DNA of 64,000 bases from positions 40,796,001 to 40,860,000 of the forward strand of contig CM069140.1 in NCBI GenBank assembly GCA_035221665.1. Direction: 5' to 3'. Made by a program: the position numbers and the translations under genes. Each line of letters starts with the position of its first letter. Position 1 is the stretch's first letter. Of this stretch, positions 39,511-45,092 are shown in pieces. This DNA comes from Okamejei kenojei. Taxonomy: Eukaryota. The notes beneath the pieces were generated by a model. The model saw only the letters and a list, made by a program, of their open reading frames with translations. It was not told the DNA's origin and did no database searches.

Positions 39511-39892
39511 CTTGAGGTTAGAATGATTGACTTCCCATGACTGCAGCTATTTTCCTTTGTGCAAGATTCGACTCCAGCCATTGAAGTAAGTTCCTTTGAT
39601 GCACATTTCCATCAAGGGATTTTGATGTCACACTCAATCAAACATAGCCTTAATTTCAAAGCTACTCACTGTTGCCTCACCTCTACAATTTAGCTCAAGC
39701 AAAAGACAAAGTGCTGTTGAAACTCAGCGGGTCAGGCGGCATCTGTGGACGTTTTGGGCAGACATAATTGCAGGTTGGGACTTTTCCCTAGACCCTTCTT
39801 TAAATAATACTCCAAATACTGCTAGCCATTGCAGATGCTAAGGTCGACACACTCAGTTGTAACTTCAGTAAAGGTTTGATGAACACTGGCTG

Positions 39893-40488
39893 TTCACGAA
39901 GGAACTGCAGATGCTGGAAAATTGAAGGGGGGACGGGGGAGGAGGACAAAGAAGAGGAGGAGCCAGAGGGCTGAAGGAGAGCTGGGAAGGGGAGGAGACA
40001 GCAAGGACTAACGGAAATTGGAGAAGTCAATGTTCAAGCCGCGGGGGTGCAGACCGCCTAAGCGGAATATGAGGTGCTGCTCCTGGGGGGGTGGGGTTCA
40101 CATTTGAGGTGGCGAAAATGTCGGAGGACTATTTGTTGTATGTGACGGCTAGTGGGGTGGAAGGTGAGGACTAGGGGGACTCTGCCCTTGTTCCAAGTGG
40201 GGGGGATGGGGGGAGAGAGAGCAGTCTTGTGGGGTATTGAAGAGACCCTTGTGAGAGCCTCATCTATAGTAGGGGAGAGGAACCCCCGTTCCCTGACGAA
40301 TGAGGACATTTCCGATGCCCTGGTGTGGAACACCTCATCCTGGGAGCAGATGCGGCGTAGACAGAGGAATTGGGAGTAGGGGATGGAGTCCTTACAGGAA
40401 GCAGAGTGGGGATGAGTGTAGTACAGATAGCCATGGAAGTCAGTGGGTTTATAGTGGATGTCGGTCAGAAGTCTATCACCTGCGATGG
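39893..40488 (-). mobile_element. Penelope-like element fragment (RT thumb to 3' terminus, internally deleted)
   Basis: TDIHYKPTDFHGYLYYTHPHSASCKDSIPYSQFLCLRRICS in ORF 40058-40564; Penelope 3' end at 39893. Confidence 0.9.
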
Positions 40489-43400
40489 ATAACGATTTCA
40501 GGATTACTGCCTGTGCCACGTGACAGTGAGAGTAGGAATGGAATGAGGTGGAGGTTAAATGCATGGCTGAGGGACTGGTGCAGTGGGCAGGGATTCAAGT
40601 TTCTTGATCACTGGGACCTCTTTTGGGGAAGGCATGATCTGTACAAAAAGGACGGGTTGCACTTGAACCCGAGGGGGACCAATATCCTGGCAGGGAGATT
40701 TACAAAGGCTACTGGGGAGACTTTAAACTAGAAAGGCTGGGGGGAGGGACTCAGGTAGAGGGGGCTAGGGGACAGGGTGTGGGGCAAGAGGCAGAGAAGG
40801 GAAGCACTCGGACCCAAAATGTAGGCGAGAAAGAGGAAAAAGATAATAGACAGAGAATAAGGGATGGTGGGTTTATAAAATGTGTATATTTTAATGCTAG
40901 GAGCATTGTAAGAAAGGTGGATGAACTTAGAGCCTGGATTGACACCTGGAAATATGATGTTGTGACAATCAGTGAAACATGGTTGCAGGACGGCTGTGAT
41001 TGGAAACTAAATATTCCAGGATTTCGTTGCTTCAGGTGTGATAGAATTGGAGGGACCAGAGGTGGAGGTGTTGCATTGCTTGTCAGAGAGGATATTACAG
41101 CAGTGCTTTGGCAGGATAGATTAGAGGGCTCGTTTAGGGTGGCTATTTGGGTGGAACTGAGAAGTGGGAATGGTGTAGCAACACTTTTAGGGGTGTATTA
41201 TAGACCGCCAAATGGGGAGCGAGAATTGGAAGAGCAAATATGTAAGGAGATAGCAGATATTAGTAGTAAGCACAAGGTAGTGATTGTGGGAGATTTCAAT
41301 TTTCCAAAAATAGACTGGGAACCACATTCTGTAAATGGGCTGGATGGTTTGGAGTTTGTAAAATGTGTGCAGGATAGTTTTTTGCAGCAGTACATAGAGG
41401 TATCGACCAGAGAAGGGGCAGTGCTGGACCTCCTGTTAGGAAATGAGACAGGTCAGGTGACGGAGGTATGCGTTGGTGAACACTTCGGGACCAGTGATCA
41501 CAATACCATTAGTTTCAATATAATTATGGAGAGAGTCAGAACTGGACCTAGGGTGGAGATTTTTGATTGGAGAAAGGCTAACTTTGAGGGAATGCGTAAG
41601 GATTTAAAAGGAGTGAATTGGGACACTTTTATGGGAAGGATGTAGAAGAGAAATGGAGGACATTTAAAGGGGAAATTGTAAGAGTACAGAATCTTTATGT
41701 CCCTGTTAGGGTGAAAGGAAATAGTAAAAATTGGAAAGAGCCATGGTTTAAGGGAAATTGGACGCTTGTTTTGAAAAAAGAGAGATATCTACAATAATTA
41801 TAGGAGGTATGGAGTAAATGAGGTGCTAGAGGAGTATAAAGAATGTAAAAATAATCTTAAGAAAGAAATTAGGAAGGCTAAAAGAAGATATGAGGTTGCA
41901 TTGGCAAGAAAGGTGAAAGTAAATCCAAAGGGTTTCTACAGCTATATTAATAGCAAAAGGATAACGAGGGATAAAATTGGACCATTAGAGAGACAGAATG
42001 GACAGCTATCTGCAGTGCCAAAAGAGATGGGGGAGATATTGAACAATTTCTTTTCTTCGGTATTCACCAAGGAGAAGAATATTGAACTATGTGAAGTAAG
42101 GAAAAAAAGTAGAGTAGCTATGGACTATGAGATTCAAAGAGGAGGAAGTACTGACACTTTTGAAAAATATAAAAGTGGATAAATCTCCAGGTCCTGATAG
42201 GATATTCCCTAGGACATTGAGGGAAGTTAGTGTAGAAATAGCAGGAGCTATGACAGAAATATTTCAAATGTCATTAGAAACGGGAATAGTGCCAGAGGAT
42301 TGGCGTACTGCGCATGTTGTTCCATTGTTTAAAAAGGGTTCAAAGAATAAACCTAGCAATTATAGACCTGTTAGTTTGACGTCAGTGGTGGGTAAATTAA
42401 TGGAAAGGATACTTAGAGATAATATATATAAGCATCTGGATAAACAGGGTCTGATCAGGAACAGCCAACATGGATTTGTGTCTGGAAGGTCATGTTTGAC
42501 AAACCTTCTTGAATTTTTTTGAAGCGGTTACTAGGGAAATTGATGAGGGTAAAGCAGTGGATGTTGTCTATATGGATTTCAGTAAGGCCTTTGACAAGGT
42601 TCCCCATGGAAGGTTGGTTAAGAAGATTCAATCTTTGGGTGTTAATGGTGGAGTAGCAAGATGGATTCAACAGTGGCTGAATGGGAGATGTCAGAGAGTA
42701 ATGGTGGATGGCTGTTTGTCAGGTTGGAAGCCGGTGACCAGTGGGGTGCCTCAAGGATCTGTGTTAGGTCCACTGTTGATTGTCATGTACATCAATGACC
42801 TGGATGATGGGGTGGAAAATTGAATTAGTAATTATGCAGATGATACTAAGATAGGTGGTGTTGTGGATAATGAAGTAGATTTTCAAAGTCTACAGAGAGA
42901 TTTGGGCCATATGAAAAAGTGGGCTGAAAGATGTCAGATGGAGTTTAATGCTGATAAGTGTGAAGTGCTACATCTTGGCAGGACAAATCAAAATAGGACG
43001 TACATGGTAAATGGTAGGGAATTGAGGAATGTTGTGGAACAGAGAGATCTAGGAATAACTGTGCATAGTTCCCTGAAGGTGGAATCGCATGTAGATGGGG
43101 TGGTAAAGAAAGCCTTTGGTGTGCTGGCCTTTATAAATCAGAGCATTGAATATAGGAGCAGAGAAGTAATGTTAAAATTGTACAAGGCATTGGTGAGACC
43201 AATTCTGGAGTATGGTGTACAATTTTGGTCGCCTAATTATAGGAAGGATGTCAACAAAATAGAGAGAGTACAGAGGAGATTTACTAGAATGTTGCCTGGG
43301 ATCCAGCAACTATGTTACAGAGAAAGGTTGAACAAGTTAGGTCTTTATTCTTTGGAGCGCAGAAGGTTAAGGGGGGACTTGATTGAGGTCTTTAAAATGA

Positions 43401-43761
43401 TGAAAGGGATAGACAGAGTTGACGCGGATAAGCTTGTCCCATTAAGGGTAGGGAAGATTCAAACAAGAGGGCATGACATGAGAATTAAGGGACGGAAGTT
43501 TAGGGGTAACGTGAGGGGGAACTTCTTTACTCAGAGGGTGGTGGCTGTGTGGAATGAGCTTCCAGCAGAGGTGGTGGAGGCAGGATCGATTTTAACATTT
43601 AAAAGTAAAGTGGATAGGTATATGGACGGGAAGGGAATGGAGGGGTATGGTCTGAGTGCAGGTAGATGGGACTAGGGGAAAACACATGGTCGGCACGGAC
43701 TGGAAGGGCCGAGTGGGCCTGTTTCCGTGCTGTAATTGTTATATGGTTATATGGTTATATG
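40489..43761 (+). mobile_element. Near-complete CR1 LINE (ORF1 C-terminus plus full ORF2 with few disruptions), (atatggtt)n tail
   Basis: ORF1 SGNH end DGLHLNPRG; APE endonuclease [57 protein letters not shown]; tail at 43738-43762. Confidence 0.97.
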
Positions 43762-45092
43762 GATGAACACTGGCTGGTTGCTCCAACGCATTTATGAGTC
43801 CAAGCATAAATTTATCATAAAACGTCCTCTAACTCAAATGAACACAAGTTAATCATGTATTACACATCCCACAATCATTTCAAACCATAATCCTTCTACC
43901 CCAGTTACAAGTTTACAAAATGTTTTTGTGTTCAATTCAACACTGCCTGCTAACCTTTTCTAATACTCTGGCTTTATCTCCTGTACTAACATTCTTTTTT
44001 CTGTCCTGTACTTCTTGGAATATTTTTACTGATCAATTGAACTTTATTCTTGGTATTTGTCAAAAGCTGTTTTGCTTTAAAATTTACTTCCTTTGTCAAT
44101 TAGGCTGCATTAACTTTGGATGGTCTCCCTTATTCCCTGAAAGGAATATGCCTAGTTCGTAGCAGTGCTCACTTATCTCTGACTGCTATTCATTGCTCTT
44201 TTATTGCTTTAACTTGTAAAATGAACAGAGATAAAATCAAGCTGTTCTCCTGAACTAAATGGATTCATTGTCAAGGGCCTGCCTGATGCCCCCGAGAGAA
44301 AAATCCAGGTTGCAGAGTAAGAGGACAAGCTGACCTATTGGGCTTTCCTACTGGTCTGTTTCACAACTTGCAACTCCCACATTTGTTTATCTATTCTCGC
44401 CCTCTAACTGCTCCCATTCATTCATTGACAAGATAACCTTGTTTATATGGTCACCCCCTGTTTTACTCAATCATAGACCTCTCTGACCCCATTCTCCCTG
44501 CAGTTTAACAAGCTTCTTTTGTCTCTTTTTTTAGTTTCTGATGAAGGGTTTCCAACTTGAAACATTGATCCCGCATCTCTTACCATGCCCTTGAATTGCT
44601 ATTTCCACTATTTTCTGTTTCACCTTTACATTTCTAGCACCTGTGTTTTTGTTTTCAACTTTCCATTTTTTCCATGGTTGGTGAAGATTATATGTGCTTC
44701 ACAGGAAAGAAAATAGTGAGGCCATGTTTGAAAATCTGCTATTTGGCAATGTTATATGTTCACCAGCTCTCACATTTAATACAAATGAGAACCAAATGAA
44801 GTTCAATAGTTACTCAAACTTGGTGCATCACATCACTTCCAAGGTACCCCTTGCCAACTGATAATACTGGTCTTAGGAAACATACAGCATTGAGTACTTT
44901 TGTTGCTGCTCATGCAACAATAGTAAAAACAAACAAATATCTAAATGCAATTTTGTGAATTTCAGGTGCCTTTGTGCCTAGTAAATTCAGGTTGGGATAG
45001 CCAGCTCTCTCCAAAATAGATTGTCTGACCATTTACATGATCACGTTCTATGAGGCATTGCATTACAAATATTGGCTGTAGATTTCCAACGT

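Follow-up and report, generated by a model that had tools for sequence, protein, structure and literature searches.

Can one integration event be built on the RNAs of two unrelated retroelements? The question is raised by a locus in a 64-kb stretch of repeat-rich animal DNA from Okamejei kenojei (64,000 nucleotides of contig CM069140.1; hereafter the window, with positions counted from its first letter). There, a fragment of a Penelope-like element (PLE) and a fragment of CR1, a long interspersed nuclear element (LINE), stand head to head between two copies of the 15-mer GATGAACACTGGCTG. The window holds exactly two copies of this 15-mer, at 39878-39892 and 43762-43776. Between them, an antisense, 5'-truncated and internally deleted PLE (39893-40489) is followed by a sense, 5'-truncated CR1 (40490-43761), and the two are joined 5' to 5'. 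It is likely that the locus arose in one integration event from two unrelated RNAs by dual priming of two nicks, probably with each reverse transcriptase (RT) acting on its own RNA, and that the 15-mer is a target-site duplication (TSD). An initial annotation of this DNA had reported the 15-mer pair, the 3' terminus of the PLE at the left copy, the CR1 tail at the right copy, and a joint between the truncated 5' ends at about 40488. The exact two-copy match is borne out, domain matches and tails agree with both outer ends, and the joint, now placed at 40489/40490, was correct within 2 nt.

By itself the 15-mer pair is unremarkable, since about one such pair is expected in any 64-kb window (mean 0.95 per 64 kb, anywhere in the sequence, in 20 simulations of order-3 Markov windows). 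The chance probability that a 15-mer pair falls no more than 10 nt from both given element ends is about 6e-7. The inner junction was placed by codon registers: the PLE codon TCC ends at 40489, and open reading frame 1 (ORF1) of CR1 is in register from about 40490. The overlap at this point is 0-3 nt. No second copy of the junction occurs in the window. Nor was one seen among the 15 joints listed from assembled contigs of other sequencing runs, beside which there are 1024 further joints, so that this negative is weak.

A search with the left flank listed 24 sequencing runs, some of them of the window's own species (organism A) and the others of relatives. Contigs of four were compared, one run each of organisms A (X1), B (X8), F (X19) and C (X9). 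In organism C, a single contig of 1364 bp (X9, record 25), at a flank-level depth of 19.9, aligns with 39247-39892 and then with 43809-44520, and carries neither element. Sixteen letters stand between the aligned blocks, against 32 in the window (43777-43808), a shortfall that an independent indel of 16 bp at a GCAT repeat 16 letters apart would explain. From where the aligned blocks end and from the gap of 16 letters, we read an empty site with a single 15-mer copy, together with that indel. An ortholog with neither element had been predicted in the initial annotation, and this contig, which joins both flanks, is such an ortholog.

In organism A, both outer junctions are spanned, the left by a contig over 39721-39920 with 1 difference and the right by one over 43746-44522 with 2 differences. 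At 15.4, the depth over the left junction is half that of the adjacent contigs (26-29). At 39648-39664, X1 differs from the window by a cluster of seven substitutions and by two small indels, which together look like a micro-inversion between short inverted repeats; organisms B, F and C match the window here. Because this change is found in X1 and not in the window, X1 represents another haplotype. Organism F, too, has a contig across the left junction, running 30 nt into the PLE. Flank divergence from the window is 0.76% in A, 2.56% in B, 3.06% in F (45/1471) and 5.38% in C (73/1358). Since the PLE is present at 3.06% and absent at 5.38% divergence, its insertion is younger than the split from organism C but older than that from F. 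Some repeat at the right end appears to have arrived in the same interval, judging by the contig ends considered below.

The left arm was identified through its relatives. A 143-aa frame at 40064-40492 (minus strand) has 43 related proteins, many with RVT_1 and/or GIY-YIG (PF01541) in precomputed Pfam annotation, and the best named protein matches of the arm come from rays and sharks; a Pfam search with the fragment itself gave no match. The architecture of an endonuclease-bearing (EN+) PLE, a PLE-type RT followed by a C-terminal GIY-YIG domain, is found by way of these relatives, most of the EN being deleted in this copy. PLEs have been described as ending in a tail of 30-40 nt (PMC8557442, PMC11167929), and a terminal segment of about 34 nt is shared here with other PLE ends. 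At other loci in organism C, PLE ends reach positions equivalent to 39898 and 39891, and a contig of organism A ends exactly as expected if the sequence from 39891 onward is multi-copy. The arm therefore stops at its family terminus and probably shares 2 nt with the target, in the left 15-mer.

Two internal deletions mark this arm, with both joints at C-runs (G-runs on the plus strand), at 39927-39940 and 40083-40095. They may stem from RT jumps in the course of this insertion or may already have been in the template, and they may be private changes or the mark of a non-autonomous subfamily. The hammerhead ribozyme of a pseudo-long terminal repeat (pLTR) is lacking from this copy, where the relevant stretch is deleted; that stretch, CTGAAGA..GAAA, is hammerhead-like by eye. 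Rfam at gathering scores gave 0 matches in the window, the hammerhead-like stretch included, and the predicted fold of the segment at 12138-12290 was not above shuffles (z 0.02). The Cys linker is also deleted in the arm and is present as CNHKKCYTC in an 86-87% related copy at 12.7 kb; a CX2-5CxxC linker between RT and EN is a feature of the Neptune/Nematis clade (PMC8557442). Pattern scans for copies of the family together with flanks gave 0 in genome contigs and 0 in viral contigs. Two loci in metagenome contigs matched at a motif of 22-24 nt only and were treated as chance.

The right arm has the layout of the CR1 clade, with an esterase ORF1 and an APE/RT ORF2. ORF1 matches PF13472 (E 1.5e-7) at 32.5 bits, slightly below the cut-off of 32.9, and ORF2 matches the APE endonuclease PF03372 and the RT PF00078. 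In pairwise comparison, identity is mostly 41-48% to bird retroelement proteins, which are CR1, versus 23% to an L2-like copy at 13267. For both arms, the best named matches are predicted proteins of skates, rays and sharks, so that on this evidence, too, the host is very likely a cartilaginous fish. A tail of 8-nt repeats is a mark of CR1, and the tandem tail here (43738-43762) consists of 3.1 copies of GTTATATG instead of poly(A), sharing 1 nt with the right 15-mer copy.

Table 1. Features of the PLE/CR1 insertion and its borders, in window coordinates.
Feature	Position	Strand	Basis and remarks
Left TSD copy	39878..39892	+	Last 2 nt probably shared with the PLE family terminus; the empty-site contig matches as far as 39892 and then goes on with the right flank
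PLE 3' terminal tail, about 34 nt, outward-facing	39893..39926	-	Three older PLE remnants in the window terminate in this motif; elsewhere, PLE ends reach 39891 and 39898
PLE stop codon and pyrimidine-rich 3' untranslated region (UTR)	39927..40010	-	Lacks the CTGAAGA..GAAA hammerhead-like stretch of the 12138-12280 copy; deletion joint at a C-run
End of the PLE GIY-YIG domain (24 codons)	40011..40082	-	tblastn, related protein P0003, residues 365-388
Internal deletion joint (C-run); about 150 codons missing (Cys linker and most of GIY-YIG)	40083..40093	-	P0003 residues 215-364 absent from the alignment
PLE late RT/thumb region, open frame, 5'-truncated	40094..40489	-	P0001 residues 62-194 at 60%; P0003 residues 82-214 at 56%
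5'-to-5' junction of PLE and CR1	40487..40491		Codon registers of both families; overlap 0-3 nt
CR1 ORF1, C-terminal 80 codons (SGNH esterase)	40490..40731	+	91% to related protein P0044, 86% to a skate protein; PF13472
CR1 ORF2 (APE endonuclease and RT), full length but dead	40863..43675	+	Frameshifts near 41629, 41749, 42123 and 42514; stop at about 42821
CR1 3' UTR and (GTTATATG)3 tail	43676..43761	+	First G of the right 15-mer continues the repeat unit
Right TSD copy	43762..43776	+	Exact 15-mer; spanned by the X1 contig 43746-44522 with 2 differences

From this anatomy we infer that both arms were made at the same time, by two enzymes, at one break. A staggered break with nicks 15 nt apart would have supplied both primers. 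The bottom-strand 3' end would have primed cDNA on the CR1 RNA from its microsatellite tail, with 3.27 kb copied, and the top-strand 3' end would have primed cDNA on the PLE RNA from its terminal tail, giving 0.6 kb with two internal deletions. Both incomplete cDNAs would then have been joined 5' to 5' through end joining, and fill-in would have left a single 15-bp duplication. As expected of dual priming, both arms begin at the 3' priming end of an RNA and face outward, the CR1 arm with its tail and the PLE arm with its terminus. Each arm was probably made by its own element's RT. CR1-type RTs show strict 3' recognition, and two ribonucleoproteins (RNPs) on one break are suggested because each arm starts at the normal start point of its own family. 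As to the first cutter, we lean weakly towards the CR1 APE endonuclease because of the bottom nick (GTTCATC/AAAC), the 53% GC of the target and the 15-bp stagger; the target sites of PAc, by contrast, are AT-rich (ATT; PMC11167929).

The central proposal of the initial annotation, one integration using two unrelated RNAs, thus stands as the best reading, with an empty site in a relative behind it. Its name for the process, twin priming, has to give way to the published term, dual priming (PMC2837659). Strict twin priming, with both arms from the RNA of one element, was rejected for arms of unrelated families and could hold only if the two had already been joined in a composite RNA. Template switching, the alternative offered at that time, would leave both RNAs in one and the same sense; the orientation found here is the wrong one for a plain switch and fits only an antisense PLE template. 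A more general proposal, which we hold tentatively and with some doubt, is that a PLE RNP, with its telomerase-like RT, and a CR1 RNP each took one 3' end of the same germ-line break, and that this is a recurring route where both families are active.

Several points weigh against dual priming. The evidence is a single locus, the empty site is seen in one of the four runs compared and so in a single outgroup, and no contig bridging the inner junction at 40489/40490 was found among the 32 listed rows for the four runs, beside which there are 361,091 further ones. In organism B there is no cover at 39766-39818, so that the left junction is unseen (about 90% of the run was read), which is a hole and not evidence. 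The right-flank contigs of B and F align from 43759, leaving 24 and 25 letters to the left unaligned. They stop 27-28 letters left of the right 15-mer, and their last three letters are ATG. A contig would be expected to end in this way where it enters a high-copy repeat whose last letters are ATG, and that repeat may be a CR1 tail in another phase; the unaligned letters may also belong to an ortholog that has one element or a different partner. Among the joints listed for organism C, 40313/43439 is a second 5'-side joint of a PLE (minus) and a CR1 (plus), with 4 extra letters, and 42450/39898 and 43155/39891 are PLE ends inserted in CR1 bodies. These joints may be nesting or further chimeras, and junctions of PLE and CR1 do also arise by nesting. 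Finally, at the upper end of the chance estimate, sequential placement gives about one such locus per genome, and the scan selects oddities.

The relative age of the arms adds to these points. The initial annotation had expected a difference in divergence between the halves to be telling. At columns conserved among relatives, the PLE arm is changed at 3/31 and the CR1 arm at 6/202 (p=0.10); at a looser threshold, the counts are 8/60 and 24/280 (p=0.33). The PLE arm is thus nominally more changed than CR1, not significantly so, in a test that is underpowered and mixes lineage-specific with private changes. The comparison is also less decisive than had been supposed, because a defective PLE template would look older as well. 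Both arms keep more CpG than their surroundings, with observed/expected ratios of 0.46 and 0.33 vs 0.20 in the flanks.

The foremost rival is two sequential insertions, which we regard as unlikely. CR1 would have inserted first with the 15-bp TSD, followed by a TSD-less PLE exactly at the 5' border of CR1, or the order would have been the reverse. Both families have very high copy number; in X1 their depth exceeds that of the flank by factors between 2.4e4 and 1.7e5, figures that are approximate and do not themselves give a copy number. PLE ends inside CR1 bodies occur in organism C, as described above, and a TSD-less PLE insertion into a non-LTR element has been reported (PMC3846280). A base-exact and correctly oriented placement within a short interval is nevertheless demanded, for which assumed copy numbers give 0.02-1.4 loci per genome, or 3e-7 to 4e-5 per 64 kb; this chance is small but not nil where the scan favours oddities. 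The initial annotation had looked to a one-element ortholog for a decision. The listed pieces of the four runs hold none, although in B and F they give no readable sequence of the element on the right.

A composite RNA is also unlikely. A source CR1 with an antisense PLE nested in its ORF1 would have been mobilised by ORF2, and 5' truncation would have happened at the PLE terminus. ORF2 is of full length, the junction lies inside ORF1, nesting of PLE in CR1 exists in organism C, and such an RNA would account at once for one TSD, one date and an older-looking, deleted PLE arm. Truncation within a few nucleotides of the PLE terminus is, however, a coincidence that we put at the order of 1%, and an RNA of this kind would be expected to have left further copies of the junction, of which neither the window nor, less tellingly, the listed joints hold one.

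It is improbable that CR1 inserted alone and that its open 5' side was patched with ready-made PLE cDNA or DNA, through end joining or synthesis-dependent copying. In L1 events, 22 templated non-L1 inserts have been reported (bioRxiv 2024.08.27.596794), and repair synthesis would also be in keeping with the two deletions and with the overlap of 2 nt where the PLE ends. Those inserts are typically shorter than 250 bp and come from within 15 bp of the site (bioRxiv 2024.08.27.596794), whereas the arm here is 0.6 kb long, ends at the PLE priming terminus and has no local donor, its nearest relative in the window being 86-87% alike. An assembly artefact or a chance 15-mer is very improbable: a chance pair is expected about once per window and the inner junction is absent from the independent contigs listed, but both outer junctions recur in X1, which is another haplotype, the left one recurs in F, and the empty site is found in C.

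The window contains further insertions of related kinds. At 12138-14167 lies a head-to-head PLE/PLE insert with both 3' ends outward and arms 91-94% alike; nested in it are an L2-like LINE with a TTA tail (about 13262-14037) and, near 12945-13104, one more insert. By eye the PLE/PLE insert has no clean TSD, and none of at least 13 nt was listed. Older PLE terminal remnants, some of them inverted pairs, lie at 39700-39790, 15763-15957, 27536-27673, 36896-37124 and 57128-57219. On either side of an AT-rich, 5'-truncated LINE with a poly(A) tail (1939-3957; L1/Tx1-like by eye) stand direct repeats of 70 bp (1869-1938 and 3958-4027) that are 100% identical, an unusually long target duplication. 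Tandem arrays occur at 15255-15472 (32-nt period) and 46047-46271 (30-nt period).

When both arms belong to the same family, dual and twin priming remain ambiguous (PMC2837659). Arms of unrelated families remove most of this ambiguity, and loci such as this one are therefore natural tests. For the inverted arms of PLEs, self-priming on an antisense template has been favoured (PMC3846280); the foreign second arm found here favours independent priming of each strand. If two RNPs on one break are indeed a recurring route, the PLE RT would be priming at breaks that other elements had opened, and the second cDNA that forms the classic inverted PLE arm would have been primed independently instead of arising by fold-back. 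The locus itself is a dead insertion without sign of function, and one case gives no rate.

Template-switch chimeras such as U6-L1 likewise have one TSD around pieces of two RNAs. In those, both pieces have the same sense and the 3' end of the second RNA lies at the inner junction; sense and inner-end arrangement are the opposite here. In the L1 literature, dual priming was postulated for two RNAs that prime at the bottom- and top-strand nicks, a process that the authors were unable to distinguish from twin priming (Meyer et al. 2010, PMC2837659). The present locus shares with that model two different RNAs, two outward 3' ends and one TSD. It differs in its second arm, which was only poly(T) in that L1 case, the arms here being of unrelated retroelement classes; for this reason, the RNA of a single element cannot explain the locus. 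L1 twin priming (PMC2837659, bioRxiv 2024.08.27.596794) also uses both nicks as primers and leaves an inverted 5' arm, one TSD and a short inner overlap. It relies on one RNA and an internal primer site, whereas the inverted arm here is foreign and starts at its own terminus. The two-L1 bridges of tumours (bioRxiv 2024.08.27.596794) likewise join two distinct 5'-truncated elements 5' to 5' with their 3' tails outward. They link two distant sites (heteroduplications) and pair L1 with L1; here there is one germ-line locus, with flanks that are contiguous in the empty allele.

Among PLEs, head-to-head arms with inverted pLTRs are known (PMC3846280, PMC8557442), including copies with TSDs of 8-10 bp in Adineta and the capture of unrelated sequence in trans (PMC3846280). 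In vitro, purified PLE protein is able to cleave and to extend each of the two strands, and it starts at defined tail sites without homology to the target (PMC11167929). No PLE/LINE head-to-head chimera was found in the literature searched, outside of which lay most subscription journals. Like the inverted-pLTR insertions (PMC3846280, PMC8557442), the present locus has a TSD and, next to it, an inverted, 5'-truncated PLE arm whose 3' tail faces outward. At 15 bp, this TSD is longer than the 8-10 bp of Adineta, and in place of a PLE copy or of cargo between pLTRs, the partner of the PLE arm is a CR1 that has a tail of its own. In sum, the component elements are ordinary, and the geometry is one already known for PLE/PLE and postulated for L1/L1.

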